DNA of 64,000 bases, taken from NCBI GenBank assembly GCA_044892525.1, contig CM097887.1, forward strand, positions 47,616,001 through 47,680,000, in the 5' to 3' direction. The translations under genes were made by a program, and so were the position numbers. Of this stretch, positions 18,181 through 50,800 are shown piece by piece (position 1 is the first letter of the stretch; every line of letters begins with the position of its first letter). The notes beneath the pieces are model-generated. The model ran no database searches, had not been told where the DNA came from, and was given only the letters and a program-made list of their open reading frames with translations. Source of the stretch: Schmidtea polychroa (Eukaryota).

Positions 18181-18214
18181 ATTGGTCCGCACACATAGAA
18201 AATTTATATATAAG
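18181..18214 (+). promoter_or_regulatory. LTR promoter: inverted CCAAT (ATTGG) plus TATATAAG
   Basis: GCGGTACTCAATT..ATTGGTCCGC....TATATAAGC is conserved with 42387-42440 on the minus strand. Confidence 0.6.
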
Positions 18215-27755: not shown

Positions 27756-28668
27756 TGGGTAACGGCGGGTAATAAGTATTTGAAAAGATTAACACGCCGG
27801 GTGAGGGGTTTCACAAATGACAAAGCACCTCATACCAATACCAACTGATTTAATCGCGATTGACTTTTCAAACATGTAGGAAATCATCACATACACACAC
27901 CTGAGGATAAGCCAATGGCATTCCCACGCAAATTAGTCAATGAAAAAATAATTTTGCTACATACCACAATTGTTATCAATATCACTTAGCGTGGAATTAT
28001 TCTAACTGTTCCGTATGATCTTACACCTACTCATGGATGTTAGATAGCAGAATTGTCAAAATTATTTAGCAATAATTTCGGGTTGGTAAAAATATTCCGT
28101 TTTATCTAATGTATTATCTGCCAATTACCATCATAGCTTTTTGGTCAATAATTGAATTTGATATACGCGACAGTTTCTTAACAGTTTTCCTTGACGGGTT
28201 TTAATGCAGCTAACGGATTTAATAGTTATATTTATCCAATTTTCATAGGTTTGATAACTTCCCGAGATACAAGTGGGCCAGATTTGCTAATTCAACAATA
28301 CGATTTTTTTCTTAATTGATAAATTTTAAATGCATGTGTAGTTTTATATGAATAATTGCGAAGATTTCCACTATATGTAAGTATATGTAAAGTTCTTTTT
28401 CGGTAATTGATTGCCATAACTATAGGCGCGATATCATAAGGTTACCGTCCACATTTCTTTTTGTAAATGCGATAAGGTAGTAAAAGTCGATCGTCTGGGG
28501 GGAATTTCTCTTTTCAGCCCGATATAGTTTTCTTTTCTTGTTTGAAATAGTGTAGATGAATAGCATGAGCCTCGAAACTATTAATAACGGTTTGTCTTGA
28601 GAATAACGATATTGTAAACATAGTGATTTATGATGATTATCTTCGTCTCTTTTTTACAGTCTTCAAAA

Positions 28669-29418
28669 ATGATCCCAGTTACCAAAACTACCATCAAGCC
28701 TTGTTTCTCCTGCGCGGATAAAAACGCGATTATTAAAGAACTACAGGCGCAGATCGGACGATATAAGAGAAAAATCGACGAGTTGGAAGGCACATGGTTC
28801 AGCCCAGTGCAAATGAAAGAAGTCAAAAAGAAGCTGTATCGAAGCGAGCACTGCCGCGATAGCCTGATCGCCGAAAGCAGGTCGCAGCGCAGTCTTATCA
28901 AAGAACAATCGGAGGCCTTCCATAAGGTCTACCTCCAAGCGGCTACGACTCGGAAAATATTCAGTATTCCGATCCACGAGGAGGATAATGTCTTTCCGAC
29001 TCATCACGATCAATCTCTTGATCAGTCATATTCGTCAAGGAAATCATGTCAAGGGTGTGTAGAGACGGATCTCTCGCCCAAGCCTGCCGACGTGATCTTT
29101 ACCGGCACCAGTAAGTCGATTCCACCCATAGCTTCCACTTCTACAGCACCTCCTACCACCGATATATCTTCTAAGCCCAAACGACGACAATTATCTCGGG
29201 CTGAAAGAAAACGAAAACAGCGCGAGCGGATCGAAGAGAAAGAAAAGAAGCAGGCATCGATTAATTCATCCGCAGAAAACAGCGTTGTCCCTACCATCGA
29301 TCTAACTACTGGGACCCCAGGGCGCATCATCTCAGCCGCAGGCGTCACTTGGGAGGAAAACGCCCCTGAATTCTTTGATCTGGGGGAACTGTTGGCCGAA
29401 ACCGAGTGGGAGAAATAA
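28669..29418 (+). CDS. LTR-encoded ~249-aa protein (CxxC, coiled coil with EGTWFSP, basic NLS-like segment, acidic-aromatic C-terminus)
   Basis: Collinear along its whole length with 39174-39923; acceptor TTTTTACAG (28651-28659) before the ATG at 28669; AATAAA near 29528. Confidence 0.85.
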   Translation: MIPVTKTTIKPCFSCADKNAIIKELQAQIGRYKRKIDELEGTWFSPVQMKEVKKKLYRSEHCRDSLIAESRSQRSLIKEQSEAFHKVYLQAATTRKIFSIPIHEEDNVFPTHHDQSLDQSYSSRKSCQGCVETDLSPKPADVIFTGTSKSIPPIASTSTAPPTTDISSKPKRRQLSRAERKRKQRERIEEKEKKQASINSSAENSVVPTIDLTTGTPGRIISAAGVTWEENAPEFFDLGELLAETEWEK

Positions 29419-30486
29419 AATAAATTAACAGGCCACAGCTCCCTCCATGAATTTTCTCGACATTGGATGTGATCCATGATGTTTTTATCTATAATTTCTG
29501 TATTATCCTTTTGTAAATTCACCATTTAATAAATCGGTTTTGAGTAGATTCTTTGCGTTGTGCTTTGGTATGATTTTTCTTTTCTACATAAATGGTTGAT
29601 AAAGATCTCTGATAGTATGTGATGTGCTAGGACTTGTAACAAACTCAGAAGTGGTGTAGTGTCAAGTAGCGATAACGTAAGTAGACGTAAGCCCTTCTAT
29701 CGGCAGTCAAGGAAAGGAAGTCGAGGCCTCAGAAAGGAGTAGTCCTAAGGCAGGGGTTCACCTGCTTTCTGGCGTCTCGTCGGCATAATACAGGACCAAC
29801 ATGAAGTAATTCATGGGTATTATGTTGGAATACAGATTGTGTGGAGTCCTACTCCGGGTTGACAAAATTGTAGGCTATGTAAATGTAAGGGGCAATCATC
29901 CTCTAGACGAGACATCAAAATTGTTTAAGTCAACCGAGTAGCGCCCCAGCACTGCTTATTTTATATAAAAGATCTACATTTCCTTCATTTAAAAGAAAAA
30001 AACATCATAATGATGGATTCTGATAATTCAAGAATCTCGTTATAAGTTTGGAAAAATTCGTTAAAAGTTTCATTTAGTTCCATATTTGTCATTTCATGAT
30101 TTACAGAAATTAAATTCTTATTTTCTAAACCTCTAAATAAGATAATAGACCATTTATTAACACAATTGGGTGGAGAGGAGATGGCAGTGATGCAAGGTAC
30201 AATAAACTACCTACTAAAATACATTAAAATATTTTCAAAAACTTTATACAAATAAAAAAGATTGTCTCTCTTCCAGTTGTTAAAACTAATCTAAAGGGCT
30301 GAATAATTCTAATTACTTAATAAAACTTTCAAACAAAATACTCGAAATTATAAAAAAAATATTATTTAATATTTACAAAATTTAAACAAAAGACAAGAAA
30401 TTTCAAGAATAATTAGAATATAAAATCAAGTTGAAAATCTTTACATTCATTATCCAATTCATTAGATTTACATTTTGTTTGAATAG

Positions 30487-31794
30487 ATGAATAATATGGA
30501 AGATAATGAATGTTTTATATGTCGTATTTCAATGAAGAATATAGCGAAGGTAATATTTGAAAGTTGTAGACATGCGTTTTGTATCTGTTGCGCGAAGAGA
30601 TGTCTTTTCAGGAGTGAAACTTGTCCATGTGATCGTGGCTCAACAAGATCGTTGCAAATTATTAATGGAAGTAATGTAAATATCATAGATAATCAAGATT
30701 TTTATGAATTTATTTATATTTCAAAATTTCTAATTGACATTAATTCAATTTTTCAAATTTTATCAAAACGATTGGAAATCAACGATATAATCTCTGTAAA
30801 TCTTGAAATGACAGAAGAAGAACTCCAAGATATTTTTATGAAATTTCCCGAAAAATTAAAAAATATTCGTGAATTATCTGAAACCATTTATGACATGTTT
30901 GTATTTTTGGAGGTTGATGTAAACTTCTTTTGTAACATTAGTAGCGATAAAAAGATAAACTTGCTTGCTTATGAGTATGATATTCTATTCAACAATTTAA
31001 TATTTTCCTTAAATATGCATGAACAATTGGTCGAGAATGTAAATTGGAGAATTAAATGTTATCGAGGGCAACTAAATCGAATCCCATCAATAAATATTCT
31101 AAAGTTTTTGTCCAAAAGATATCGTTTCTTTCATGAACAATTGGAGTATTCAACAAATATGTTTCAATGGTTCCTCAAACGTATTTCGATTTATTTCAGC
31201 GGCTTGATTAAGGAGAAAATGGGAGATATTTTCAATAATGAATTAGATGGATTGGATCTTATCTCAACAGAGATTCCCATTAACAATATTCAAATGAAGA
31301 ACAAGATAATGGAGCTTGAATCCCTGGTATTTGAAGACACAGATGTCGATCTTGATCGCTTTATAGTTGATGAAGAATTGGAACATATGATTTTTTATTT
31401 AAAATTTTTGTTGGATATGGAAAATTCTATTTTGAAAATTAACAATGGGAAAATGAAAAGATATTCAGTTTACCTAAAGTCTGTTGTCCGGTTTAGTGTT
31501 TCCGATAATTGCAATGAATTGGTGTATCATTATCATACCATACGGCGTCATATTATTGGAAATTACGGACCCAGCTGGGATGCTTCGATTTGCGTTATGA
31601 AAGATTTAATTAAAAATTTCATTGAACTTATACGTGACTATATTAGTGAGGAAACTAAGAAAGAAATTAAATTTAAATTCAAAATAAATCTAAATATTAT
31701 TGAAGCAAGTATTGAACGCTTTCCAATCAATGAAAAGGTTCTGACTATTAAAGGTTTATTGGAAAGTATTTATTCTTGTTTGAAAGATTTATGA
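30487..31794 (+). CDS. Intronless RING-finger protein, 435 aa, with unknown helical C-terminal domain (paralogue 1)
   Basis: CFIC...CRHAFCICC...CPCDR; blocks shared with 35488-36753 (QLExSTN, LISTxIPIxNIQM, LESLxFEDxDV). Confidence 0.8.
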   Translation: MNNMEDNECFICRISMKNIAKVIFESCRHAFCICCAKRCLFRSETCPCDRGSTRSLQIINGSNVNIIDNQDFYEFIYISKFLIDINSIFQILSKRLEINDIISVNLEMTEEELQDIFMKFPEKLKNIRELSETIYDMFVFLEVDVNFFCNISSDKKINLLAYEYDILFNNLIFSLNMHEQLVENVNWRIKCYRGQLNRIPSINILKFLSKRYRFFHEQLEYSTNMFQWFLKRISIYFSGLIKEKMGDIFNNELDGLDLISTEIPINNIQMKNKIMELESLVFEDTDVDLDRFIVDEELEHMIFYLKFLLDMENSILKINNGKMKRYSVYLKSVVRFSVSDNCNELVYHYHTIRRHIIGNYGPSWDASICVMKDLIKNFIELIRDYISEETKKEIKFKFKINLNIIEASIERFPINEKVLTIKGLLESIYSCLKDL

Positions 31795-35095: not shown

Positions 35096-35403
35096 AAAAC
35101 AATATATTGAATCCGATTCTAAATTTAGGTTTGTTGTATTAGGAACACACGAAATAGGAGATCGTGCGCTTCAAAAAGCAAACGAACCAATTCAGCCTGT
35201 TGAATCCGAAAGAATATCTGAACTAAAAGAACTTAAAAAGAAAATAATTTATATTAAAGAAAACTTATATTCTCTTGCGCTTGCTTAGTGTTCGAGTTGG
35301 AAAATCTATTTAAAGATGAAATTAATAAATAAATTTGCCCCCCCCCCCGTATAACGAGTTTTCATCGGTCCCGACAGTTTCGTTATAGGGGGGTTTCACT
35401 GTA
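33899..35403 (+). mobile_element. Decayed pogo/Tigger transposon (CENP-B HTH plus DDE fragments, right TIR)
   Basis: KRQSIDVEKKIQII...STLSGILK; IFNFDESRLFW; AWMT...ILDNC...FLPPNTSSLIQPLDQGII; right end TTTCGTTATAGGGGGGTTTCACTGTA at 35378-35403. Confidence 0.8.
35009..35090. repeat. (TA)n microsatellite, ~40 units
   Basis: Directly visible. Confidence 0.95.
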
Positions 35404-35487
35404 CATATATATTTAAAATTAAAAGTTTTTAAAAAATTTTAGCAATTATATATATTTTGTTTAAATAAATAAATATTGATTTTAAAT

Positions 35488-36753
35488 ATGGAAAACGATG
35501 AGGAATGCCTGATATGCTTTTCACCAATAAATAATGAAAGAAATGTAATAATTGAAAATTGTCGACATTCATTTTGCATGGATTGCCTAGAGAAATGGCT
35601 TGTAATTAGTTCAACTTGTCCATGTGATCGGATCTCAATAAAATCACTGAAAATTATTGATGGAAATAATGTAAATATCGCAGAAGCTCAAGATTTAGTT
35701 AATTTTAATTGTTGTTCAAAATTTCTAATTAAAATTAATTTGCTTTTCAATATTCTATCGAAAATGTTGGAAGAGAATGTTCCAATTTCTTTCACTCCTG
35801 AAATGACAGATGAGGAACTGATTGCAATCTTTACAGAATTTTGTGAAATTTATCCAGTTTATTTCGAATCTTTGGAATTCTTTTATAATTTAGAAAATGT
35901 TTTGAATTTACAATCACCTGATATCCTTCATCAAATTGATCAAAAAAGAAATTGGGACTTGATAGTTTTCATGTATGAGAAGCTCTTTACCACTGTGGAA
36001 ATGTTAGTAGAATTTAAAATAGACCTTCATAAAAGTTCTTATCGTTATCTGATTTTAAATTCAAACCTAATGAAAAATATTCGAAAATTCTTAAGTAAAA
36101 TTGCAAAATTGCAAGAACAATTAGAGCTTTCAACAAATTTGCTTCGTTGGTTACTGAAAGGACTTTTCATTTATTTTAATAATTTGATGGGAAACAAGTT
36201 AAAAGATGTTTTTCCGATATTATTTACTGAATTAGGAAAATCAAATTTGATCTCAACAAAGATTCCCATTGAGAATATTCAAATGGAAGACACGATACAA
36301 AAACTTGAATCATTGATATTTGAAGATAAGGATGTAAATCCTGACCATTTTTTACTTGATGAGAGCTTGGAAATTATTATCACAACTTTAAAAGTTTTGT
36401 TGGATATTTTGAGAGAACTAAGTTTATCAAATCTTTCCGTTTTTGAAATAATACTTCTCAAAGTTGAACTTTATTATATCGATAATAGATTTTTCCTTCA
36501 TGACAATATAATCGAGGATCACATTTTTACAGCTGAGGTCTATCCCGAATGCTTGATTGAAAGCGTATACCATCTTATAAATAATATTTCTACTTTCATA
36601 ACTAAAAAGGATAAAATGGAACTCGACAAAGGTATTAAAAAGATGTGTAAAGAAATTATTCAACTTCAATGTGAATATATTGAAATCATTGAAAAGGTTC
36701 CGACTATTCAACGTCTGACAGAAGATTTTCTTTTGGTTTTGAAAGAGTTATGA
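35488..36753 (+). CDS. Intronless RING-finger protein, ~421 aa (paralogue 2)
   Basis: CLIC...CRHSFCMDC...W...CPCDR; collinear with 30487-31794. Confidence 0.8.
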   Translation: MENDEECLICFSPINNERNVIIENCRHSFCMDCLEKWLVISSTCPCDRISIKSLKIIDGNNVNIAEAQDLVNFNCCSKFLIKINLLFNILSKMLEENVPISFTPEMTDEELIAIFTEFCEIYPVYFESLEFFYNLENVLNLQSPDILHQIDQKRNWDLIVFMYEKLFTTVEMLVEFKIDLHKSSYRYLILNSNLMKNIRKFLSKIAKLQEQLELSTNLLRWLLKGLFIYFNNLMGNKLKDVFPILFTELGKSNLISTKIPIENIQMEDTIQKLESLIFEDKDVNPDHFLLDESLEIIITTLKVLLDILRELSLSNLSVFEIILLKVELYYIDNRFFLHDNIIEDHIFTAEVYPECLIESVYHLINNISTFITKKDKMELDKGIKKMCKEIIQLQCEYIEIIEKVPTIQRLTEDFLLVLKEL

Positions 36754-37928
36754 GAACCTTTTTCAATTCTATTATTATTTAGATGAGTTTTTTTAATACA
36801 AAATGTTGAAAAAACTTTTAAACTTTAAATTTTTTTAAATTTTAAATATAGACAAAGCTAAAAATTTGTGTTAAAATGGAAAATTAATTTTAATCTATCA
36901 TAATGAAAATATATATTAAATATCAAAAGAAAAAAATAAAAGGTTATCAGGCCCTCTACGCCCTATAGATTAATTAATCTTTTGGTGGTTCGCCGTTAAT
37001 CCACATTTTACCCTTTCTTTTCATTTCGACACATGAAAAGATACAATTGTTTACTCTTCCATCCGACAACCGTTGAGCAATCAGTATTAACGTCGTTTGA
37101 AGTAATTCGTGCTGATATCTCTGTTTTAACGATTAATTTTAAAATCTAGTCATAATCGATATTACACTCAAATACTTTGAGTAAGAATTTCCACTGTCTT
37201 TCAGTATCAATTAATCTATAATAGGGCTCCTTATAACAGCCGTCCTTCAAAACTTTGAGCAGAGGTCAGCCCTTTTTTTGATAATTTACTTTCCAAATTT
37301 TATATTTTTCTTAATTTCAACTAATTTTATGGCGACCAAGAAGGATTTCGCCATTTTCATAGAATATGTGTCCATGTTATGTTTGTGTTCATTCCATGAA
37401 TTACTTCTTACTTATTGTTTATCTTTTTGGTCATATATAAATTCTTTTAATTTTGTTTAATTGGTGTTGTGACGTGTTTTTAATTTGAATTTACTTAATG
37501 TTATGCCTGCATGCTATTTTCCAATGCATTCTGACCATATTACTGTACTTGGGCTTAAATTTAGTTTTTTTCCAACACTTTCATTACACAATTAGGTAAT
37601 ATTTAATTAAAAAATTTATGTCAATTTGAAACATGTAATAGGGTATTTTAAGTCTCAGTGAATTTATACAGGGAATTCAGGTCTCTTTAAAAAAACTTAA
37701 ACTAAATGGTTGTTAAAATATCATAATTATTTTTTAGGTTTCTGAGATTTTTTGTACGAGATTCGGCTCTTGTTAAAAAGTCCATGTACTTTTGTTGATC
37801 CTAGAATTTTTTACATGTATTTATGATATGAAATTTTGAAAAATCGAGGTCTTATGAGAAATTAAGGGAAATAAGTAAATTAAAGTAAATAGGTTAAATT
37901 TAAGTAATTATTTAAGGTACATCGCTAA

Positions 37929-37980
37929 CATGGGCGTCCGCAAGGTGGGAACCAGTGGGGGGCAATCCCCCCCCCCCCAC
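37929..37980 (+). mobile_element. Possible hAT-like terminal sequence
   Basis: CATGGGCGTCCGCAAGG...GGGGGGCAATCCCCCCCCC resembles hAT termini; partner end not found. Confidence 0.3.
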
Positions 37981-38606
37981 AGAATTTCCCAAACCATTCC
38001 ATTTTTCGATTAATTAAAACACATTTTAACAGATGCTCTCAAACAATGATGGAAAACCGAAGACAAAAAAAATTTAATTTAAAGAGACTTCCTGTCTTTT
38101 ATTAATGTTATTAATTATATCTGGAAATCAATGATTTCAAATCATCTTATTTGTACAAAAACTTTCAATATTAACTGACTTTCTGGTTTTAAAAAAGTGT
38201 TCTATTTTGTAAATAATCGAAAAAAATCCTATTTTCTATAATGCCCCAAATATTTATTATACACATGTATTTTTTTTCAAAGAAATGTATTGAATTTAAC
38301 ATATTTTAAGAAACGATGTCTTCCTAGAAATTTAAAAAAAGTAATGAAATATTTAATGTTATTTTTTACATAGATAATTTTTAAACAAATTTTTTGATTG
38401 GTTACACACCAGATTTTTTTATACACATTTAATTGATTTTTAAATAAATTTATTTTTATAGGTATTATTGCTCTTCAAAAGAAATTGACGATTGTCATAA
38501 GTATACTACATAAAGTCATATTATAATAAGATAAATTTTATATGTCTAGTATGCACCACTTCCCAAACCATTTGATATTTTGATTTTTATAATAAACATA
38601 AATATC

Positions 38607-41600
38607 TGTTGCGGGTACACTACTCGGATGACCCCTTGTTAGTGCAACTTTAGTCTAGAGGATGAATGTCACCTCGATTTCGCCCATCATTTATTTGGTC
38701 ATCGCCGAGCGGGACCCGTACATAACTTACACTCCAACATAGCACCCGTGAATTGCTTCACGTTGGAACTGTGCTATGCCGGCGAGACGCCAGTAAGCAG
38801 GTGAGCCAGCTCCTTCGGACTACTCCTTACTGAGGCCTCGACTTCCCAACCCTGACTGCCGATAGAAGGACTTACGTCTACTCATTCCGTCGCCCCATCG
38901 CAATATTCCTAGCTGAGTTTACCAACTGATTAATGCTCCTCACGATTTCATGACTCTCAATACCATTTGCCAATTTCAACTCAACTGTCTTAAGATGAAC
39001 ACAAAGAAAAAAAAAGTATGCAGACAAATATGGTTTATTATTAAGATTATCAAACAAATATATCTAACACCTATACAATAAAGTTCACGACAACGGGAAA
39101 AGAGACAAGGTAAAATGTTATCAGACAATGTTCAGGTCAATTCAGAGAACGAAGGCTTTTTACGGGGAAGTTCTCATTTCTCCCACTCCGAGTCGGCCAA
39201 TAGATCTTCCAAATCGAAAAACTCAGAGGCGTTTTCCTCCCAGGTAACACCAGCGGCGGAGATGATTCGCCCTGAGATCACTGATGCTAAATCAATTGCT
39301 GCAGGAGGGTTGATGACTTTGATTGGATGATCCGACGATTGCTGGTTCTGTTTGGCGGTTATGCGTTCCCGCTGTTTCTTTTTGCGTTCGGCTCTCGATA
39401 ATTGCCGACGCTTTGGCTTCGATGCCGTTGGATTGATCGGGGGTGCTGCGGAGGTGGATGCTATCGCAGGTAGCACTTTACTGGTTCCGGTAAAGATGAT
39501 TTCTGGTCCTTTAGGTGAGAGCTCGGTCTCTACGCACCCATGGCAGGACTTTCCGACTGGAGAAGAAGATCCGCCAGAGATATCATGATGCGCTGGGAAA
39601 AGATTACTGGCTTCATTAATTGGGATCTTCGCGATCTTCCTTGTAGTTGCGGCCTGGACGTATAATTTGTACAGCGCCTCCGACTGCTCTTTTATCAGGC
39701 TCCTCTGCGCCCGACTCTCGGAAATCAACGCGTCTCTACAGTGCTCGCTTCGGTGCAGCTTCTTCTGAACCCCCTTCATCTGGGTGGGACTAAACCATGT
39801 CCCCTCCAACTCATCTATCCTTCTTTTGTGCTTTCCGATTTGGGCCTGGAGCTCTTTGATAATTGAATTCTTGTCGGAGCAAGAAAAACAAGGTCGAAGA
39901 ACGGTCTTGGAATTTGGCAACATTTTTGAGTGACTGTGAAAAAAAAATGAAAAGTGAAAATAATTAAATCAGCGGGAGTGTCACCATCTGACTACATCCA
40001 TACTGTACTGATCATAGACAAAAATATGGGTATACCAGTCCAGACAAGTTCTACTACGCGATGGATTCTCGTACCCTTTCGGGGCTTTAATTATAAGAAG
40101 ATAAATCGATCAAACCAGATTTCGCACAGGAAAAAGGAAGATATTACTATTTGTGAGAGAAATTCTAGGTCGATGAAAATGATTATTTATTTAATTCGCT
40201 TAGAGTCATTATTTCACGTTTACCGAGAATCGATTTAAATTGTCGACTTCTCCCCCCGTACGAGTGCTTTTAATGAGTGTATCATATACTGGGGGCGAGT
40301 GACTATCTATGGAAAAGGGGTCCATAATGCCTGTCGATTAGTTCCTACAGGATAAACGGAAGGTTATTTAAATTTTTAATTGTTTATTCATTCTCTTTAA
40401 TTACTCACATATGTGTTTTACCTGGTTTACATAATATTTATTTAACAATATTCGATATTAATATTAATGATAACTATGTCAAAAATTGAAATAATTTCGG
40501 TGCCATTCATGCTAAGATAATAAAGAGAGAATAATCATAATTATGATCGAGTTTATCATTAAAAATTAGTGTCTTTATAACAACTGAGCACGGTATCAGT
40601 GTGAGCTAGTAGTCGACCATACCTGCTGGGTAGATAAGGTAATGTCAGCCTAGTGATTGACTCTTAATCCGGAACGGTAAAATCTGATACCTGTCGGTAG
40701 TTTGATTAGTTAATAGAAATTCCATCTGGCATGTCCGGTCTGATTTTACATGATTAGAGACGGTGTGACTTTACCCACTACGCTTGGCTACTGTGTATGT
40801 CGGCAACTGGGTGACGCATGCAAGTTGCGTTTTCACACTCTTAATTATACCGATCGCTAGTAATGTAGGTTTTAAATGTTTGTATGCTGACATTTTCTCA
40901 GATTTTATCTACTGCGTAATCACTCACCATTCTCCTACGTATGGTGATGATTTACTAATTCTCACCGGATTATTGGAAAAATTAAAATTATCTATATTGC
41001 AAATGTTGGATACAGCCTGCTCCAAGGGTGGATTTTCCGTCTTTAATTCCTCAAACATAGTTTATCGAGCTACTCTCTAAGTGCTGGAGGATTTCTACCT
41101 GTCCCTGCTGGATTGCCAGCCCCCTGAAATACTGGAATTTTATATTTAATTAAAAAGATCCTCGGTTAACTTGAAGAAATATATTTTCTTGGCTCGAGTT
41201 AGTTGCATTTTTCATTTTTAAATTATTTGATGCCAATAGTTCGTGTAATTATGATAATTAATTATATGTAAATCCTTTCATATAAAATTCTAAAAAATTT
41301 ATGATAGCGAATCATTTTATGTAATTTAAACTTTTATTTGGAACAAACTCGTTTTATGCAATTCTGAATAACTATTTGGATTAAATCATTTTACCTGGTT
41401 CTACCATTTATTTACAAACAGTCATTTCGAGTAATCCTGATACTTGTCTGAAGCAATCTATTTTGAACTCCCTTGCAACTATATCTTTAAGAGAACTTTC
41501 AGACGAACGGAATAACCGTTCAGAAGGTCATAGGCTAAAAATTGGTCGGAACAGATTCTGAGTGAAAGGTATGGACATCAAAGACATGTCACAGATAGCC

Positions 41601-42748
41601 TCATCAAGGTTTGAACAATTTTTGACGCACAACCTACATTGATGATAGAGAAAAATTTTTCCTAGCAAACACGACATTCGAAAACGATAGTGTGGCACCC
41701 TCAATCACTGCGCGAATACATCCAAACCCTCCGATTCCTTTATTACATATCTTTGTTTTCAATCACTACATGACTATCAATTTTCTGCCACCATTTACCT
41801 ATAGATTTTAGTCGCACCTTCAGCAATTGGACCCGTGAAGAAGCCCTCACATTTCGGCCCAATCTAGCTGCGTGATTGAAATACCCTATGTCCACCGGTG
41901 GAGCTCCCGAAGGCACCTCACACCATGACATAGAGTATCTCAACGCCACGTTTCTCGCAAAATTGAATAGTCTCCAATAATAATTCATAAAAATTAATTC
42001 ATAAAAGATCAATAATTCTTAACGAGCAAATCATTTATTATCAAGCAAATTATTAATTTAAATAAAGCATTCTAAAATCAAACGAAAAGAAAAACCATTT
42101 TTTAAATTAAAAATATTATTAAACTATACGCATTACTTAAAAATTCAAAATAAGCAATCAAAAATCCTTACCGAATGATTGATACAAGTGTGGGCTGAGT
42201 CGAAAAGGGTACTATGTCGAATCAGTTAATGCTCGAATATCGTCTAGTTCTGTAAAAATCTCTTGAATCTTGGAATTGTCCTCGTGAGTTATCGTGCGTT
42301 AGTTGCTGGAGTTCTGTTCTGTCGTAGAATAGATTTACCTATTGAGGTGGTTTGATTAACAGTAATTGTTATGTTTTTAATGCCTGCTTATATATTAATT
42401 TTTTGTTTGCGCGGACCAATTAGAATTGAGTACCGCTTAATTTTATTAATTTAATTTATTTTCCTTGTTTTTAGTTATTTCTTCTTACTTTCTTTATTAA
42501 AATTATGTTTTTATTTATTTTCCTTAATTTTCTTATTATTTACTATATTTTACGTTGTTTTCCGCCATTCTATTGTCCTATTTTAATTTTTTCTCATCTT
42601 TATATTTTTTGTTTTAATTCCTATTTTCTAATTATTGTTTTTCTTATGTTTTATTCCATTTTGTTTGTCAATTTATTTGTTTTTATTTTTTTTTTATTTT
42701 AGTTAAGTTTGCCCTAATTTCTCAACTACCCTTCGATTCAGCCCAACA
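38607..42748 (-). mobile_element. 3' LTR, 4142 bp, TGTTG...CAACA termini
   Basis: Perfect 5-bp inverted termini; both ends homologous to the TSD-bounded solo LTR at 17851-29951; TATA at 42387-42394. Confidence 0.88.
39174..39923 (-). CDS. LTR-encoded 249-aa protein (EGTWFSP family)
   Basis: Intact; collinear with 28669-29418; acceptor TTTTCACAG|TCACTCAAAAATG; AATAAA near 39035. Confidence 0.85.
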   Translation of the reverse strand: MLPNSKTVLRPCFSCSDKNSIIKELQAQIGKHKRRIDELEGTWFSPTQMKGVQKKLHRSEHCRDALISESRAQRSLIKEQSEALYKLYVQAATTRKIAKIPINEASNLFPAHHDISGGSSSPVGKSCHGCVETELSPKGPEIIFTGTSKVLPAIASTSAAPPINPTASKPKRRQLSRAERKKKQRERITAKQNQQSSDHPIKVINPPAAIDLASVISGRIISAAGVTWEENASEFFDLEDLLADSEWEK

Positions 42749-42981
42749 AATCACTCGGGGACCCATCAAAATTGCGTCCCGCAATTGCATAGTTATCTTA
42801 CTTCATGCATTCATAAAAAGGATATATCGAAACAATTATACTACAATAACAAAAACAATTTTATTCTAAGATATAGGTCAAATCAAGACCAAGCAAGTAT
42901 CACTTAAGGTGATAGTTTGTATATACAATAAAAGTTTCTACATATGATAACCCCAATGTTTGAGTTAGAGTTTATGAACTG

Positions 42982-43641
42982 TTAACCATTTGATGCTTCT
43001 GCCGGCGGTTGTTGGTTGGTTTGGGTATTGATGTTGAGATAGGTCTGACTGTAAGAATTCGGCTGGATTGGTTGGTTACTCGGGATTCGAGGTCGGAATG
43101 GGGTTGGGTTAAGATTTGTCAGTGGCACTTCTTGAGGATTTCTGTTCGAGGTTACTCTTATTGATGTCGGGATTCTACATTTATTTCTAACTTCGTAAAT
43201 CTTCATGAGTATTGGTAGACATAGGAGGAGGGTTTCTGCGACCACCACATACATGAGATAATGGGTGTCATTGATTTCGGGAGGTGTTTTTGGCTTTTCT
43301 ACAAGATTTTCAAAATTCTCTTGTTGCATTTGTTGTTCTAACTGGTCGAATTGTTGGATTTGTTCGAGGATTTGTTTGTTTATCATTTTACAAATGGGAT
43401 TCTTTTTACACATTGTTTGGATGTTGTTGATGTGTGAACGGGTTGATTGAAGGGTTTGGATGATATGGATTTTTACTGTCATAGGGTATGTGCATTGGCC
43501 GGATTCTCGTTTAGGTTCTTGATTTTTATTTCGGTAATCTCGCACGATTTTCGGTTGGGCGTTTACTTGTTTGTTCTCCGTCAGAATCATCAATACCGTC
43601 ATTGTTATCATCATCTCGCCTCGCATGATACTATTATACAT
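42982..43641 (-). CDS. Accessory ORF5: predicted type I membrane protein (signal peptide, small Cys ectodomain, TM, Pro/Asn/Gln-rich tail)
   Basis: MMITMTVLMILT...VNA signal-like; YLMYVVVAETLLLCLPILMKIY TM-like. Confidence 0.7.
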   Translation of the reverse strand: MYNSIMRGEMMITMTVLMILTENKQVNAQPKIVRDYRNKNQEPKRESGQCTYPMTVKIHIIQTLQSTRSHINNIQTMCKKNPICKMINKQILEQIQQFDQLEQQMQQENFENLVEKPKTPPEINDTHYLMYVVVAETLLLCLPILMKIYEVRNKCRIPTSIRVTSNRNPQEVPLTNLNPTPFRPRIPSNQPIQPNSYSQTYLNINTQTNQQPPAEASNG

Positions 43642-43682
43642 TCATTATGGTTTATTTACAATTGGTTTTAGTGATCCTTAAT

Positions 43683-44444
43683 TTAATGATTCTGGTTTGG
43701 GTTATTTTCGGCGATTCTCATCAGGGTGGATTCCGCTTTAATGACTCTGTGTCTTAACTCGGGCAGCATTTCCAACTGTCTGTTCTTTTCACGGGCCTCC
43801 CTTTTCATGTGCCTTATCTCCTTTTTCAGTCTCTTAATTTCTTCCCGTTTTTTGTCGAGATTCCTTTTTAGTTCGATTTGTAGGAAATCTTGTTCGTTTT
43901 CCTGCGAAAGGTTTCGTTGTTGTTGTTGTTGTTGTTTTCTCTCGATCTCTTGGTACTTGCGAATCCATTTCTTCATTTCCTCACTTTCTCGTTGTTTTTC
44001 CTCCAATTGTCGATTTAATTTATTTATAGTTATTTGGTGTTCTTTCGCTTCTGTTTTCCAATAATCTTGGATTACTTCTTCTGCCTTGAAGCTTGCCCTC
44101 TCTTGCCATAGTTCCTCTGCAATCTTTTCCCAGTTTCTTCCTCGTGTTCGTTGTTCTTGCAACCATTCATTCTTCTCTTCAGCTTCTCTCTTTATTTCTC
44201 CTAACGCTTCGCACTCCTTCTTTAGTATTTTAATCATTTTTCGGTCTTCTATATATTTGTTTATTAGTCTCTCGTTTTCGTCCCTCTCTTCCCGTAACTT
44301 GGCCTTTAACGTTTGTGTTTCTGTTGTTTCTGCCTCAATCTCTCCCTCTTCCACGTCGCTCGTAATTTCTATTATTTCCTCGATTTTCATATCTGTAATA
44401 TGTACAGTTAATGGTGCGCTATAGTGCGACTTATACTTATGCAT
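43683..44444 (-). CDS. Accessory ORF4: coiled-coil protein of unknown function
   Basis: 253-aa open frame, E/K/R-rich heptads, same codon bias as the polyprotein; likely start MKIEE after TTACAG. Confidence 0.7.
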   Translation of the reverse strand: MHKYKSHYSAPLTVHITDMKIEEIIEITSDVEEGEIEAETTETQTLKAKLREERDENERLINKYIEDRKMIKILKKECEALGEIKREAEEKNEWLQEQRTRGRNWEKIAEELWQERASFKAEEVIQDYWKTEAKEHQITINKLNRQLEEKQRESEEMKKWIRKYQEIERKQQQQQQRNLSQENEQDFLQIELKRNLDKKREEIKRLKKEIRHMKREAREKNRQLEMLPELRHRVIKAESTLMRIAENNPNQNH

Positions 44445-44557
44445 TTATATAAAATTTTAATAGTTCGGGTTACAGTCCCTTGAATACTTTTACAATACTT
44501 TAATTTTTTTGTTTGGGATATACGTCCCGATTTTTGTTTTTATCTTTTTATTCACCC

Positions 44558-45613
44558 TTATACGAAGGTTTCCTCCTGTCCCACATAACCTTCGTCACTA
44601 TCGACCGCTGGATGCAGCTGTATCGCAATAGGGTCATAGGGTAGGTAATATTGGGGGATTTGAGCTCTCAATTCACTAACTTCGTCTCTTAGAGCTCGAG
44701 TGATATTCAGCTCTTCGTCGAGCAGATAAGTGAGATACCTTGTCTCTTCGTCTTTCGCCTCTACTTGTCTATCTAAGGCCTTGATTTTCTCGTCGCCCTT
44801 CCATTTTTCAATTTCTATTTCCAAGTTTTTGATATTTTCGGTATACATTTTCCTCTCGTTTTCTAATTTTCTGTTTTTTCCCGCTAGGACCATGTTTCTT
44901 TGTTCTAACGATCCTTGTAATCCATTAAGGTCTCTTTTCATCTCTTCGACCTGATTTACTAATTCCACAATCCGTCCTGCTTGTTGGGTTATCATCTCTT
45001 CCATTGCGGCATTCTCGTGCTCTCTTATGTCGCATTTTATTGCCAAATGTCGCTCAAATTCCATAGCCTTTGTTTGCCAGGTTTGACTTCGGGCGGCGAC
45101 CTTTCTCAACCGTTTCAATTCTTCCTTTATTATTAAATTCTCCTCCCATTTGCCCTGTTCGCTCTCATATCCGAGTCTCATGGGCAATTCTTTCATCTCT
45201 TTTTTCATTTCATTGCTTTGTCTTTTCCATTTTCTCGCTTCTGCCACTAAGTGCATCATTTTCCTGTCTTCTATTTGTTTTTCCGCTTCGCGCTTGGTGT
45301 TCTCATCGGTAAGTCTCTTTCTCGCTTCCTGCACTAGCTGCTTTAAGTAGTGGCTGTGTGCTTCTTGGCGGGTATTTTCTAGTGACGCCCATTTTGATGC
45401 TCTTTTGCATGCTTCTGCTTCCGCTCTTAAGTTGTGTATTAACCATTGGTATTGACTATTCTCATCTTCTCTAGCTTCTTCGATGTGATTTCTGGTGAGA
45501 TTAGTTAGTTGGAACATTACTCTGTTCCATTTTTTGTTATGTTCTCGGGGAATTTGTGTCTTGTTGACATTGGTTGGGGCTATCGCAGTTTCGGTTAGTT
45601 TCTCTTGTGTCAT
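44558..45613 (-). CDS. Accessory ORF3: 351-aa coiled-coil protein with acidic/aromatic tail
   Basis: Long open frame with heptad pattern; tail YYLPYDP...DSDEGYVG. Confidence 0.72.
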   Translation of the reverse strand: MTQEKLTETAIAPTNVNKTQIPREHNKKWNRVMFQLTNLTRNHIEEAREDENSQYQWLIHNLRAEAEACKRASKWASLENTRQEAHSHYLKQLVQEARKRLTDENTKREAEKQIEDRKMMHLVAEARKWKRQSNEMKKEMKELPMRLGYESEQGKWEENLIIKEELKRLRKVAARSQTWQTKAMEFERHLAIKCDIREHENAAMEEMITQQAGRIVELVNQVEEMKRDLNGLQGSLEQRNMVLAGKNRKLENERKMYTENIKNLEIEIEKWKGDEKIKALDRQVEAKDEETRYLTYLLDEELNITRALRDEVSELRAQIPQYYLPYDPIAIQLHPAVDSDEGYVGQEETFV

Positions 45614-45806
45614 CTCTAAATCATAGACATCGATTAATTTTTTTATTATGAAAGAGGAATTTATTCATTATTTACTGTTTCTTGGGAAATTTTCGCATCA
45701 TTTTTGGGTTTTCGTATTTAGGGTTTTCATACTATTATTATATAATATTTTATTGGTTATATACACCGATATATACAGATTATTATATACAACATTATTC
45801 GATTGG

Positions 45807-47195
45807 TTACTCCGTTCTACCCTTCTCCTCTTTCCTCACGGTCATCTTGATATACACCGTGTCATTTCTTGCCATATCTTCTACTTTTTGTTGTAGGATG
45901 AATGTAGGTGCTCCTGTTGCTGATCCTTCTTCTGCCGTAGGTCTCTGGTAACACATTTGGTTTCCAGTTGTCTTGAAGCTTTGTTCGTGGATGCTTCGGT
46001 CATTCATTAGTGCAATATCGATTTTTGCCTGGAACGGCCACTCTATTATTTCGTCGTATTCCCCTTTACATAACAGAAAGAAAATCGAAAAGTGCGTATC
46101 TAATCCGGTTCCGTCCCCGTTGGGATATATCTTCATTTTCATTTTGTACCCATTTTTCCAAGAATGGAATGCAGGACTTGTTATTCTTGTCTCTTCTCCG
46201 GTTTTTGCTTTTCGTATTCTTTCTTTTACTCCCGTTATTTTCCATATGTAGGGTGCTGTTGGGGTTATCTCATTTAGATTTATTTCCCGTATTTTCTGAT
46301 GTAGCTCCTTGGCCTGATTATTACTGATTTCTATTCGGTTTATTTGCATCTTTATGTTTGCTCGGGCTTCTTCGAACGCTTCCCTTTCTTCTAGTAGTTC
46401 TTTGACTAACACTTTCAACGATGTTATCTCTATCTCCATTTGTTTTACTTTCTCTTCGCTTTCTTGTAACGCAGTCGACCACATTTCTGCGTGGGTTGAA
46501 GCATTTTCTACTAAATGATGTGGTAACTCACCTCGGTGTAGTAGTTTCTGACAACCCCATCTACCTAGTACACATGTCATTCTTTTCTTTTCGCATTCCC
46601 TTAGATGCTGTGCCACCTTCATTATTTCCCCTTGGTTACATCCGTTTGGGCATTCCCCACTGAACTCTGCACATACTCTCTCCTCTTGGACATTGTGATG
46701 TTTGAGGGTGAGATTTTTCCACGTATCTATTTCTCCACAGTGTTCACATCTTTCCAATCTCTCTTCACACTGCCTTTGATGCTCTTTTTCTTCGCTTGCT
46801 CGAATGGTTTTATGGCACCTTTCACACTGGCCAATTCTGTACATACATTCTCCCATATGTTGTACTACCTTCCATATTACTCCTTTCCATTCGCATGGGG
46901 CATTTTTGCATCCCAGGTTGGTGTTTAACATGTCTTTCACTGCGGCTTTATCCTCGTTAGTGTCTTCTAAACTCGATATTAGTGTCTCTTTACACACCGG
47001 GCACCTCTGTGGTCTATTCTTTATTGCTTCACTGATACATTCTTTACATACTCTGCATCCACATTGCGTTTGGTGAGGTTCCTTTAACAACTTTTCACAT
47101 ATTCCGCACATAACATGTTTGTGTATTCTGATCGTTGTAGATTTTCGGACTTGCTCGACAATCTCTCTGAACTCTTCTCTTTGTCGTTTATCCAT
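45807..47195 (-). CDS. Accessory ORF2: intronless full-length TRAF homologue (RING, TRAF zinc fingers, coiled coil, MATH)
   Basis: CGIC..LL.EP.QT.CGCRVC..C...CPVC; several CxxC..H..C fingers; MATH motifs YIWKI, SPAFHS..GYKM..KIYPNGDG.G..TH.SIFF...KGEYD....WPF. Confidence 0.93.
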   Translation of the reverse strand: MDKRQREEFREIVEQVRKSTTIRIHKHVMCGICEKLLKEPHQTQCGCRVCKECISEAIKNRPQRCPVCKETLISSLEDTNEDKAAVKDMLNTNLGCKNAPCEWKGVIWKVVQHMGECMYRIGQCERCHKTIRASEEKEHQRQCEERLERCEHCGEIDTWKNLTLKHHNVQEERVCAEFSGECPNGCNQGEIMKVAQHLRECEKKRMTCVLGRWGCQKLLHRGELPHHLVENASTHAEMWSTALQESEEKVKQMEIEITSLKVLVKELLEEREAFEEARANIKMQINRIEISNNQAKELHQKIREINLNEITPTAPYIWKITGVKERIRKAKTGEETRITSPAFHSWKNGYKMKMKIYPNGDGTGLDTHFSIFFLLCKGEYDEIIEWPFQAKIDIALMNDRSIHEQSFKTTGNQMCYQRPTAEEGSATGAPTFILQQKVEDMARNDTVYIKMTVRKEEKGRTE

Positions 47196-47280
47196 TCTAT
47201 AATTATATGTACAAATAGTTCTTATCGATACAGGTTCGATATTTTATTTACAATTATTTACATTTTAAGCTAGGTTTGGT

Positions 47281-47640
47281 TTAGGGTTCGGAAGAGTCGG
47301 CTTCGTGTCCGCTCTCCTCTCTATTCATTAGCCATTCCGACCAGTCTTCTATTTCTGTCTGTTCTGCTTCCTCCATCATTCTGTCTAGCTCGATTTCCTG
47401 TCTACGGCTATATTGGGTTATCCTCTCTATCTCTCTTTGCATTTGTTCGATTTTCAACCTCTGGTCTTCAATTATTTTCAAATAACTAAATCCTCTATTC
47501 ATACTCTCGATTAGGTTTCTGTGCATCGTCAATCCTTGTTCTTGCAAATTGGACACTAATTGTGCTAATACGGCACATTGTTGCTTCCATAATTCTTCAG
47601 TTACTGTATTGTGGTTCATTTCGTTATTTCCTTGATCCAT
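47281..47640 (-). CDS. Accessory ORF1: ~119-aa coiled-coil protein with acidic Trp-containing tail
   Basis: Likely start MDQGNN (47640); tail EIEDWSEWL. Confidence 0.6.
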   Translation of the reverse strand: MDQGNNEMNHNTVTEELWKQQCAVLAQLVSNLQEQGLTMHRNLIESMNRGFSYLKIIEDQRLKIEQMQREIERITQYSRRQEIELDRMMEEAEQTEIEDWSEWLMNREESGHEADSSEP

Positions 47641-47800
47641 TCTTAATTTATATACACTTTTCAACTCTTATTTAACTTTAATTTTATTTTATGATTCCCG
47701 TTATTGTATAATATTGATACCGCGCTTATATAAAGATATAGTACTGTTGTATACATAAGATATACTTACTTTTTACAATTATATACAGTCATATTCCTTT

Positions 47801-50800
47801 CTATATACGTGAGTTTGGAGGGCGCTGAGCGTTCCAGGCCTCCACCCACTGTTCTTGTTTGATATCACTTGGTCGTTTCACTCGATGTTGGAAATTTCTG
47901 ATTCGGGTCATCTCTAGTTCTCCGCGATGTCGTTTATCTTTAATTATTTTTATTGTTCCCCCTGTTATGATTAGGAAGGCCCCTGTTATTATTATCCCAC
48001 TGATCCACATCATCTGCTTCACGCTTATATTCTCTGGTTTCTCCTTGTTCGTTAATGTTGATATCGCTTCTGTACCTTGCTCGTTTCCTCTTTTGCCATT
48101 TCCTTTCATCATTTCCCGTATTCTTGCTATTTCCTCGTTCATACCCTCCTTTGCCATCTTTTGTATTTTTTCCATCTCTTCCTCCGAAACATAGTTGTCC
48201 TGAGCTTCCTCACCGGTTTTCTTGTGCTTTCCTCCTTCGTTCTTTTCGTCGTGGTTTTTTCTTTTCTTTCCTCTTTTCCCCGGGTATCGTCGGCATTCTC
48301 TTTTTGATTCGTTCCTCCAGATACAAACCGTGTATTCTTTCGGCGGCTGCTGCTGCGTCACATATTGATGGCATCTCTCACCTGGTCCTAATCTTGAAAT
48401 ACAGACTTTGTGCTCTTTTCTAGGTTGGAGCTGCGTTCTTACTACTTCACCACCTTTTCCTAGGTGTACCTCTTTTCCTTTGACGTTCGTTATTCTCTTC
48501 CCGTCTCGATTTCGGTATGCTTCTTGTATTCTTACTTCTGTTATTGGTTCTGTGTCCTCATTTATCAGTACTAGTTTCTGGTACGCTCTAGACATGCATC
48601 TTCCTAGTATGCACCTTTCCTTTAAGTCCCATTCTTCCTTTAAATCCCACTGCTGCTCTTGTGCTTGCTTTTTCTTTACTTGCTTTAGTTCATCCTCTTT
48701 GCTATCTTGATTCTCCGCTTCTTTGGTTTCTTTTATCGTTCTCGTCCCTCCCTGAGCTGTTACTAACTCTATCATGGTAAGCATAATTATCATTAATATC
48801 ATGTTTGTCTCTATTTCTTTGTTAGTGAAAGGTAGGCATACCCTCTGTTTTCCATTATTCGATTTTTCCTCCTCTTTGGTCTTGGTTCCCGGCCTGTTTC
48901 CCTCTCTTTTCGTATCCAAATCCTTGCTTTCCGGTTTATCCTCTTCCGGTTCTCTTTTCCCTTTATCCTCTTTCCGGCCTTTTCCATCATTGTCATCGTG
49001 TTTATCTCCCCCGCTGTCATTTAAAATGTCGTCCTCGACATTTATATCGTTCAATAATCTGCGATATGCTGTTAGCACTCTGTTTCTTGCTAATTTTGCT
49101 TCGAATTCAAACTCTTTTCTACCCGTTGCAGCATGTCTCTTTCTATTCCATTCTTTAACAAACTCTCTCAATTGCATACGACGATGTTTCCCAATTCGTT
49201 GTTGCTCGTTCTGATTTTGCGTGAATTTTAGGTCTTCTCTATTTAATACTATTAAAATAATTTTAGGCGTCCCCCCCTTAGTTAGGGTATTCTTTACCAT
49301 CGCATTTTCTCCGTTTTCGTAGAATTCGTTTACATTTATCGCATATTTATTATTTTGTGGTACTCTCCAGGTTAATAATAATTTCATTGCTTCTAGATTT
49401 TTCCGTACCGTATTCCATTGAAACTGAGATGTGTTTTTGCACATATTTTCAACTTCTTCTTTTGTCGCATTTTTGCAAATAAATCTGATCATTTCTAAGT
49501 TTGGCTGTATGGTTGCCCAGTCCAAGGTGGAATTTCCTTCATTGGACCTTTCGTCTAGTTTCGATCCTGATTGATGTAGGATGTGGAGTGTTTTTGGGTG
49601 TATTTTCGTTATAGCTGCATACATCATGGCGGTTTCACCTTGTTCATTTTTCGTGTTGGTTTCCTCGCCCATCTCCCCAAGGATTCTCATGATCGTTATT
49701 GCTCTATTCTCTTTTGCAGCTAGTATTGCTTGTTGTAGAGGTGTTCGGGAATCCTTTGTTACCATTGTAAATGCTCGAGGCAAGAAGGTTTTGATTTTCC
49801 CGATATCTAAACCCGTGGTTTGATCTCTTGCGTATGTGTGTACGGCTTTTATTATTTTGGACAATATTATTTCGTCTGGCAGCTCTAGCATTTCCTCAAA
49901 GAACACTTCTTTTGCTTTGCGTATTATTGCCTCTTGATCTATACTCATTGATTTTGTTTCAATGACGTGGTTTGTGACCGTTTGGTTCGTTGTTGACTTT
50001 GATTCCCTCGGTTTCTCATACCTTATTTTCGTTTTCTTTCCGTTTGGATTATTGATTCGTTCCTCTGCTGTAAGTATTTGGATAATATCCAGGTAATTCT
50101 CGCGGATGTTATTCATTGTGTCCATCATATATAACACGCTTACCGTTTCCCAATATTTATTTCGTACTTGGTTAGTAAATTGGAATATTGATTTTTCGAA
50201 TGTGTCAATTCGCTCTTTTAATAACTGCTCATCTTTATGATTTGTGAATTTTATCCCTCGTTCTACTAATTGGTTTGGGATTTCGAATAAATGATGTCCT
50301 TTCATGGCTTCTCTCATAAGCGTGTTCTCTCCTCTCGTGAATGCTTCGTTTACGTTGATCATATAATTATTTTTAATTGGGTTTCTCCAAGTGATTAATA
50401 CTCCTGTAATTGTTGTCAGTTTTTCTTTGATCGCTGTTAATAATCCATCATACATGTTTCCGACTTCTCGATTGTCCTCATATGATAGTAGTTCCATCAA
50501 TGACGTGAACGCCTCGGTACTTTTCCCTTCGATAGCATGATGTAGTGCGTTTTTCCGCTCGTGGTCTTGTGTAGTTATTTTCGATCCAGTATCGAGTAAT
50601 GCGGTTATAACGTCTTTTGTTTTGCCTCTGTTTGCGGCTATCATTAATGGTGTGTAACCTTGGTTGTTTGTTTGTTCTGTTGATCGCTTGCAGTCGTGAA
50701 ATGCGTCTATTGTTTCTAGTATTTGCTCGTTGTTACCTACTTTCATGAGTTTGTGTAATGGTGTGTCTCCGTAACGATCTGTTATTGTAAATAATATTGG

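Follow-up and report, generated by a model that had tools for sequence, protein, structure and literature searches.

Four Giant LTRs Each Carry an ExTWFxP Frame

The stretch of DNA analyzed here, hereafter the window, comprises 64,000 nucleotides (nt) of Schmidtea polychroa contig CM097887.1 (positions 47,616,001 to 47,680,000; assembly GCA_044892525.1), within a 781-Mb genome of four large contigs. It contains most of one giant Gypsy-type element on the minus strand (element D) and four long terminal repeats (LTRs A to D) of 4-6 kb, each of which harbors, in its 3' third and on its sense strand, an open reading frame (ORF) for a protein with an ExTWFxP motif. The LTR ends were set by comparing the window with itself and with copies elsewhere in the genome. 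LTR A (163-6134, plus strand; 5,972 nt) is a solo LTR flanked by the target-site duplication (TSD) CTAG, while LTR B (9338-15657, minus strand; 6,320 nt) is the 5' LTR of a truncated element and is followed by a primer-binding site (PBS) and ~1.5 kb of internal sequence. LTR C (17851-29951, plus strand; TSD CTGC) is again solo and is interrupted, in its predicted intron, by an insert of ~8.5 kb (~19400-27900). LTR D (38607-42748, minus strand; 4,142 nt; TSD GATA) is the 3' LTR of element D, a full Burro-type element; its partner lies 26,093 nt off, and apart from a single 1-nt indel the two agree at 4,142 of 4,142 positions aligned.

The A to D types are Burro-type giant Gypsy LTR elements. 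They combine multi-kb LTR pairs, a TSD, a PBS and a total length of ~30 kb with a giant polyprotein, in which a fusion domain precedes protease (PR), reverse transcriptase (RT), ribonuclease H (RNase H) and integrase (IN), and with ankyrin and MATH/TRAF cargo. One PBS, which looks complementary to the 3' end of a tRNA-Pro, is common to the A, B and D types (9320-9337, minus strand, in the window) and was found after every 5' LTR inspected. A- and B-type LTR pairs elsewhere in the genome are spaced 31-39 kb apart and flank the same polyprotein (~55% identity over pol, from one element per type). In element D, the 4,617-residue polyprotein (47801-61654, minus strand) consists of Gag, CCHC zinc knuckles, a mononegavirus-type fusion protein, PR, RT, RNase H, IN and ankyrin repeats, with a TRAF-like ORF downstream; this order matches the planarian Burro layout (PMC6431247).

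A preliminary description of the window had placed homologous frames at 5348-5812 (LTR A, plus strand), 9716-10155 (LTR B, minus), 28669-29418 (LTR C, plus) and 39174-39923 (LTR D, minus), and all four were confirmed, each in the sense of its own LTR. In A the motif is ECTWFPP; B, C and D all have EGTWFSP. Exon A starts with the TG at 5349, after an acceptor AG at 5347-5348, and exon B has an in-frame stop at 10088-10090; neither has an ATG at the acceptor. ORFs C and D each encode 249 residues, and ORF C is open. The D protein displays a CxxC at residues 12-15, helices at 15-39 and 46-98 broken at GTWFSP, an HH..CxxC cluster, a basic helix at 177-194 and an acidic tail at 228-249. The C and D proteins are indeed collinear, with 168 of 249 residues identical and differences at codon positions 1, 2 and 3 numbering 68, 38 and 151. 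The accompanying claim that their upstream sequences are unalignable holds for the 500 nt before the acceptors (0.55, versus 0.55 when shuffled) but not farther upstream, where a promoter region (73%) and an intron block (81%) are conserved.

That the four proteins are homologues spanning two LTR families was borne out through B, whereas the direct similarity of A to C/D is weak alone. A profile of C/D matches B at 32.6 bits and A at 14.1 bits (best shuffle, 8.9), while A and B match each other at ~110 bits; since B bridges both, we join A and C/D in one family. W43, P46, E69 and R71 are invariant across a 35-sequence alignment. Protein searches of the genome with D and with A each returned 150 of 150 scored candidates, out of 6,886 and 5,453 first-look candidates, respectively, totals that are not copy numbers. 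A further, more divergent subfamily of loci (L245-L262) keeps the N-terminal CxxC, GTWFxP, an HH..CxxH cluster and the basic helix, and three of its members (L248, L249 and L253) end acidic. Three of its copies (L258-L260) stand at 27.4-kb spacing.

The ExTWFxP Frame Is under Purifying Selection

Selection was measured across 160 loci: 80 C/D-type (30 young D, 30 old C and 20 divergent D-type), 50 A-type and 30 B-type. The frame is open in 53 of 80 C/D loci (28/30 young D, 6/30 old C and 19/20 divergent D-type), 42 of 50 A loci and 27 of 30 B loci; L034, first counted as open, is frameshifted near its end and was omitted from later counts, and L083 was omitted from the profile. Removal of near duplicates left 27 C/D, 27 A and 7 B copies. 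The ratio of nonsynonymous to synonymous substitution rates (dN/dS), binned by dS, falls with divergence from 0.38 to 0.07 in C/D, from 0.73 to 0.14 in A and from 0.55 to 0.17 in B. Between diverged copies it is 0.07-0.3, whereas the private variants of a single young subfamily come close to 1, and silent sites are saturated in 192 of 351 C/D pairs. The purifying selection on an LTR frame that had been proposed from the C/D comparison is thus upheld, and with it the description of these LTRs as protein-coding.

Variants shared by several copies, which have hence passed through replication, can be compared with private ones, present in a single copy. dN/dS is lower for shared than for private variants in B (0.12 vs 0.99, p 2.6e-5) and in the divergent D-type set (0.08 vs 0.30, p 1e-9); the values are 0.06 vs 0.19 in C and 0.18 vs 0.49 in A. 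The ExTWFxP frame is the sole stop-free frame of six and has the lowest pN/pS (the corresponding ratio for polymorphisms). The antisense mirror frame also shows a pN/pS of 0.31-0.34, but with 2.6-3.3 stops per copy. The ExTWFxP frame is almost certainly a real gene, and since old copies decay, selection acts on the element, not on the host.

A Predicted Promoter, Intron and Poly(A) Signal Surround the Frame

Sequence signals conserved among copies outline a spliced gene inside each LTR. In LTR D, on the minus strand, a TATA box (42388-42394), preceded by an ATTGG box ~26 nt upstream, lies ~355 nt into the LTR as counted from its 5' end, and transcription would start near 42364. A first candidate donor (42333-42346; last exon base 42339) and a second (last exon base 42172) follow. 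The candidate acceptor, a polypyrimidine tract plus CAG at 39934-39960, precedes the ATG by 10 nt, and an AATAAA (39034-39039) lies 134 nt past the stop codon. The equivalent signals of LTR C, on the plus strand, are a TATA box at 18207-18213, a donor at 18263, an acceptor at 28659 and an AATAAA at 29528-29533. More generally, C/D LTRs have the ATTGG box at ~+330 and the TATA box at ~+355; a donor AG|GTAA sits 55-56 nt past the TATA box in 14 of 18 anchored loci (25 examined), with a second donor farther on. The acceptor (polypyrimidine-YAG) is mostly 9-10 nt before the ATG, and AATAAA is 107-137 nt after the stop.

A/B LTRs have a TATA box at ~+655 and a donor 80-88 nt later. In LTR A (plus strand), the TATA box is near 819, a predicted coding mini-exon 1 spans 859-898 with an ATG at 859 and a donor after the A at 898, and AATAAA occupies 5830-5835; in LTR B (minus strand), the donor follows the A at 14921. 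Among 28 anchored loci (35 examined, 7 without anchor), 26 have an A as the final base of the exon, as do 18 of 19 exon-1 sequences that differ from one another; both exceptions come from a single element, being its two LTRs, and the base next to the donor A varies. In C/D loci, where the ORF starts with an ATG of its own, the 14 of 18 donors noted above read AG|GT instead. As the acceptor reads YAG|TG, in frame, in 78 of 80 loci, the predicted junction would form an ATG codon. We have revised the notion that this is the sole start, since A-type exon 1 has its own in-frame open ATG in 18 of 21 loci (coding lengths of 37, 40 or 43 nt, differing by multiples of three), so that only B-type LTRs, in which the exon-1 ATG is out of frame and stopped in 7 of 7, would need the junction ATG. 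Spliced leaders can end in AUG; trans-splicing of such a leader was dropped as a source of the A/B start because it would yield the wrong frame.

The final AATAAA is conserved in 24 of 27 C/D copies and in 24 of 27 and 7 of 7 copies of the other two sets, and lies 14-27 nt past the stop in A/B. Around it the conserved words are TGTA and a T-rich downstream tract, which are typical of a used poly(A) site, and the 400 nt before it contain no conserved TATA box in C/D, A or B copies. At face value, and if this reading holds, U3 would span ~0.4-0.7 kb, U5 ~0.3-0.4 kb, and R, the repeated region between them, ~3.3 kb (D) to 5 kb (A).

Read contigs over 35300-47900 were available from four runs. Two of them (X5 and X6, from one study, RNA origin guessed) show contigs at the ORF bins and scarcely any, if any, across 39931-41614, and another (X7) has a single record over the whole interval. 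A promoter anchor within 1,200 nt upstream of the ORF was present at 0 of 160 ORF loci, and two gapped patterns for intron-less copies had 0 genome matches, a weak test, as exact patterns are insensitive. The conserved TATA box, donor, acceptor and AATAAA speak for the earlier proposal that each LTR holds a complete promoter-ORF-poly(A) gene, support that does not extend to transcripts. On the conserved signals we consider the spliced LTR-gene model likely.

Conserved RNA Structures Lie in the Predicted Intron and in U5

Two further blocks are conserved outside the frame. In LTR D they lie on the minus strand at 41806-41964, in the predicted intron (C copy at 18722-18879), and at 38690-38900, in U5, where a 5' motif is common to all four LTR types. 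The 160-nt C/D intron block is conserved between unconserved flanks and folds on the sense strand, with compensatory changes at 11 of 50 pairs in 19 copies; in the U5 block, 7 of 47 pairs show such changes across 21 of the 35 distinct copies found. Base pairing is kept in 97% (intron) and 99% (U5) of cells, compared with 37-48% in slid controls, and 0 of 500 shuffles reach the covariation score. Rfam has no family for either block: one scan yielded just a chance match (Xist, 19 bits vs 50), and another, of five loci, yielded none. For want of an Rfam match, we also abandoned the idea that the conserved blocks are hammerheads.

The Predicted Protein Is a Coiled-Coil Dimer with a Basic Helix

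AlphaFold2 predicts helices in the D protein at residues 15-39, 46-98, 177-194 and 238-242, with low confidence in the remainder; the model as a whole is weak (predicted local distance difference test, pLDDT, 62.5; predicted template modeling score, pTM, 0.33). Folding two copies of residues 1-135 gave a coiled coil that runs from C12 to residue 91, its chains parallel and in register. Its interface score (ipSAE, from predicted aligned errors) is 0.58, compared with 0.00 for the best control, at least 90% of contacts agree between runs, and pLDDT is at least 72; the mark applied is reached by 17 of 29 eukaryotic homodimers, a small set, and by 0 of 30 single chains. The C/D protein is therefore predicted to be a parallel homodimer over residues 12-91 with its paired CxxC motifs in register. 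The paired CxxC and the HH..Cxx[CH] cluster, which is kept in the further subfamily, suggest zinc sites.

The motifs first noted in C/D, namely both CxxC, the basic segment and the acidic-aromatic end, are present in 26 of 26 de-duplicated C/D copies, but the CxxC motifs and the acidic tail are absent in A/B. Residues 169-194 contain 12 K/R and 2 D/E, and residues 228-249 contain 1 K/R and 9 D/E. Invariant in C/D but missing from A/B, the tail cannot account for the function of the whole family.

When 1.84 billion proteins were searched exhaustively, nine matches emerged (P0001-P0009; E 2e-8 to 2e-4). They are unnamed gene models with a common GTWxxP coiled coil and, in most, an arginine-rich helix: P0005, P0007, P0008 and P0009 have 8-11 arginines in 17 residues, whereas the window proteins have mixed K/R. 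This helix suggests RNA binding by the relatives. In eight of the nine, the sequence is fused with a host domain unrelated to it, such as subtilase, actin, SNF or phosphatase, and the nine may be mispredicted or exonized LTR exons of another species. A 27-protein tree carries long-branch warnings and serves only to display groups. P0001 has a subthreshold match to Pfam REV (E 0.0013; 19.1 bits vs a cutoff of 22). Other searches returned little. A word-based protein search with D gave 0 of 982 candidates; a profile search gave one protein among 7,999 candidates, an A-type sequence; the best atlas score of 0.84 is a lead only. There was no match to a Pfam family, nor to a PDB entry or a viral structure at E<=0.001 (best PDB sequence, E 4.5), Foldseek with the weak D model retrieved only generic coiled coils, and the family, PDB and fold searches revealed no similarity to a host family.

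A Second Frame, ORF X, Is Selected in A/B LTRs

A/B LTRs contain a second frame under selection, which we call ORF X. In LTR A it encodes 160 residues with an AT-hook-like GRP motif (4450-4932, plus strand; acceptor at 4447, AATAAA at 5034), and in LTR B it encodes 120 residues ending in RKRGRPRK (10469-10831, minus strand; AATAAA at 10320-10325). The two are homologous (probability 98%), each with its own acceptor, ATG and AATAAA, which makes ORF X and the ExTWFxP exon resemble alternative last exons. The core of an AT-hook is RGRP flanked by basic residues, and RGRP, with which ORF X often ends, is found in 7/8 B-type and 7/17 A-type copies; a Pfam scan gave no AT-hook match, and an atlas search for ORF X returned nothing.

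Other Features of the Window

The predicted A/B introns contain tandem repeats, of a 160-nt unit in B (12313-13313) and simple and partly masked in A (~2116-2863). The predicted intron of LTR C holds, on the opposite strand, a non-LTR retrotransposon (21655-27434, minus) with a 1,034-residue RT ORF and upstream ORFs. LTRs A and B are ~89% alike over their first 720 nt and diverged beyond, and a 712-nt piece adjoining LTR B (15671-16382, minus) equals the beginning of an A/B-type LTR, taking in U3 and the first few bases beyond the predicted start. The shared first 720 nt suggest U3 exchange between the A and B subfamilies.

Downstream of the element D polyprotein, five ORFs at 42982-47640 (minus strand) encode a 119-residue protein, the TRAF-like protein (462 residues), two coiled-coil proteins (351 and 253 residues) and a 219-residue protein. 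Three of them have an AG 1-2 bases before the ATG, as if spliced to; elements of the A and B types possess the TRAF and 351-residue ORFs as well. Element B has a 160-residue C3HC4 RING ORF in its leader (8145-8627, minus), 82% identical in one A-type element. Intronless genes with an N-terminal RING finger form a cluster at 30487-31794 and 35488-36753 (plus strand; DNA ~70% alike), and fragments of such genes occur near 17368-17844 and in locus L121.

Discussion

What might a gene inside an LTR do for its element? Our preferred reading, which we advance tentatively and with a little less than even confidence, is that a spliced, LTR-only mRNA encodes a coiled-coil homodimer that binds the structured RNA of the element through its basic helix and promotes production of full-length unspliced RNA. 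Transcription would start ~385 nt (C/D) or ~685 nt (A/B) into the LTR, and a transcript from the 5' LTR would run into donor, acceptor and poly(A) signal ahead of the PBS. By default, the first RNA made would be a short LTR-only mRNA, spliced and polyadenylated, that encodes the ExTWFxP protein, while the genomic RNA would have to read through the 5' LTR poly(A) signal and, because intron-less copies were not found in the weak test above, retain the intron. The protein could then serve as a feedback switch acting like Rev/Rex, on unspliced RNA, or like Tat, on elongation; its acidic tail would recruit a host factor, and in A/B-type LTRs use of the alternative 3' exon would supply an AT-hook-like partner. 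We favor an RNA-binding trans-regulator because the poly(A) problem is shared with retroviruses, which must suppress 5' LTR polyadenylation and of which foamy virus has its major donor upstream of the poly(A) signal (PMC3694450), and because complex retroviruses use Rev/Rex/Rem or Tat on structured RNA (PMC12789967).

The comparison with known systems is informative in both directions. Rev, Rex, Rem and Tat are small regulators made from spliced RNA that act via the virus's own structured RNA, with the Rex response element (RexRE) in the LTR (PMC12789967); here, a basic helix, predicted oligomerization and, in C/D, covarying RNA may be counterparts. Their genes, however, lie between the LTRs, whereas the ExTWFxP gene lies wholly inside each LTR, and there is no above-threshold sequence or fold relation to Rev/Rex/Rem, no export signal conserved in C/D, and no sequence or fold homology found to Tat, Tax or Tas. 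A Rev/Tat-like role without membership of those families is the one that we favor, at somewhat below an even chance. Foamy viruses share the need to suppress 5' LTR polyadenylation and an early regulatory gene (PMC3694450 and PMC12789967), but their Tas, to which no homology was found, is expressed from an internal promoter in env and activates promoters (PMC12789967). Conserved extra ORFs of the plant elements Grande (gene23), RIRE2 and Retand, some of them nuclear and proposed to be like retroviral accessory genes, lie in the internal region and are often antisense, rather than LTR-internal (PMC7264820). None of the searches described above linked the ExTWFxP protein to a host family.

The sag ORF of mouse mammary tumor virus (MMTV) lies in U3. 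The preliminary description had invoked it as a precedent, which is apt for the location in an LTR but goes no further: Sag is a type II transmembrane protein (PMC12789967), while the ExTWFxP protein is a soluble-looking, charged, basic coiled coil with no hydrophobic anchor in sequence or model, and its ORF apparently lies downstream of the LTR promoter, not in U3.

Several observations weigh against the preferred reading. As regards selection, neither the young D set (p 0.25) nor two of three ORF X sets (p 0.14 and 0.055) show a significant difference between shared and private variants; dN/dS was computed on open frames only, and two divergent sets (40 of 160 loci) were chosen by protein search, although sets picked by DNA agree with the protein-picked ones on selection. 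As regards RNA, the covariation counts are inflated by kinship among copies and the structures were derived from the same alignment. The C/D intron block has no match in A/B LTRs, and the A-type intron block is conserved without covariation in 15 of the 16 copies found (2 of 39 pairs, covariation term +0.3). The structured RNAs could also be signals for packaging, dimerization or export by host factors, with no element protein needed. As regards the protein, the REV match occurs in 1 of 35 alignment members and is probably due to low complexity, and the mixed K/R segments of the window proteins would fit a plain nuclear localization signal equally well. A leucine-rich export pattern is not conserved in C/D, with five scattered matches among 27 copies and none in D; matches in A/B sit mainly within the coiled coil. 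Finally, the predicted D junction was matched by 0 of the 15 joints shown of 74, which is uninformative either way, and the predicted R of 3-5 kb is far beyond the 15-250 nt of retroviruses (PMC12789967).

The main rival, which we consider unlikely, follows the transactivator proposal of the preliminary description: the protein would activate the LTR promoter, in the manner of Tas or Tax, by being DNA-directed or tethered. In it, a dimer with a basic DNA-binding helix would carry an activating acidic tail and ORF X would be its partner in A/B. The acidic-aromatic end shared by all 26 C/D copies compared and by three members of the divergent subfamily speaks for it, as do the predicted dimer and the RGRP motif of ORF X together with a very A-rich U3. 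Yet the A/B proteins have no acidic tail, and fold searches brought up no DNA-binding fold. Moreover, the C/D basic helix is C-terminal to the coiled coil and ~80 residues away from it, unlike the basic region of basic leucine zipper (bZIP) proteins, which is placed differently.

It is less probable again that the protein is a host-directed accessory factor, acting on PIWI-interacting RNA (piRNA) or chromatin silencing, or on cell-death or ubiquitin pathways, with the LTR site allowing early expression from many copies. The TRAF/MATH, RING and ankyrin cargo of these elements fits such a role, and Burro RNA is repressed by SMEDWI-2 (PMC8532177). In the family, PDB and fold searches the protein resembles no host family, however, and its conserved basic helix, like the element's own splicing and poly(A) problem, points inward.

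Equally improbable, in our view, is the usual LTR layout, with the gene in a long U3 under its own promoter, genomic RNA from a separate, unrecognized TATA-less start near AATAAA, a short R and no switch. The RNA starts proposed here are predicted from motifs, R is short in all characterized retroviruses, and some retroviruses do have their poly(A) signal in U3 (PMC12789967). This layout has to contend with the missing TATA box before AATAAA and with the TGTA and T-rich tract of a used poly(A) site; with A/B AATAAA signals so close to the stop that the promoter would sit in coding DNA; and with a covarying intron RNA that is easier to explain if unspliced RNA there matters. That the frames are by-products, either captured fragments or GC-rich LTR sequence retained for another reason, is barely credible and is refuted by the selection results: most old C-type copies are broken and the mirror frame also has a low pN/pS, but such decay is expected under element-level selection, and silent sites are saturated while the protein is conserved in the only stop-free frame, the mirror frame being riddled with stops.

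The element itself is known, and the LTR-internal gene appears to be a new feature of it. Burro/GYPSM1 elements are similar in their ~30-kb length, LTRs of several kb, single huge polyprotein that has a fusion protein placed between gag and pol, and ankyrin, MATH/TRAF and RING domains, and the part of PMC6431247 that treats them describes accessory ORFs and polyprotein domains with no LTR-internal gene; they differ from the elements here also in that TRAF here is a separate ORF after the polyprotein. In the literature, mostly judged from listings, we came across no account of Burro or Gypsy LTRs that contain a gene, and Grohme 2018, its supplements or the Repbase GYPSM1 entry may already mark such ORFs.

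LTRs are usually taken as noncoding control DNA with a short R. More tentatively than for the role of the protein, we suggest that Burro LTRs may be complete, alternatively spliced regulatory genes, in which an R of 3-5 kb combines an intron with a structured response element and with a regulator or two. Together these would form an independently evolved early-to-late switch resembling that of complex retroviruses and make each of thousands of solo LTRs a potential trans-acting gene. With coordinates predicted for donor, acceptor and poly(A) site, the model lends itself to direct testing, and the ExTWFxP exon already contaminates host gene models, as the eight fused database matches illustrate. 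If true, a selected, spliced LTR gene would explain the length of Burro LTRs and would be the first candidate self-regulator of the dominant planarian element, and solo LTRs, normally dead ends, could remain protein-coding and act in trans.

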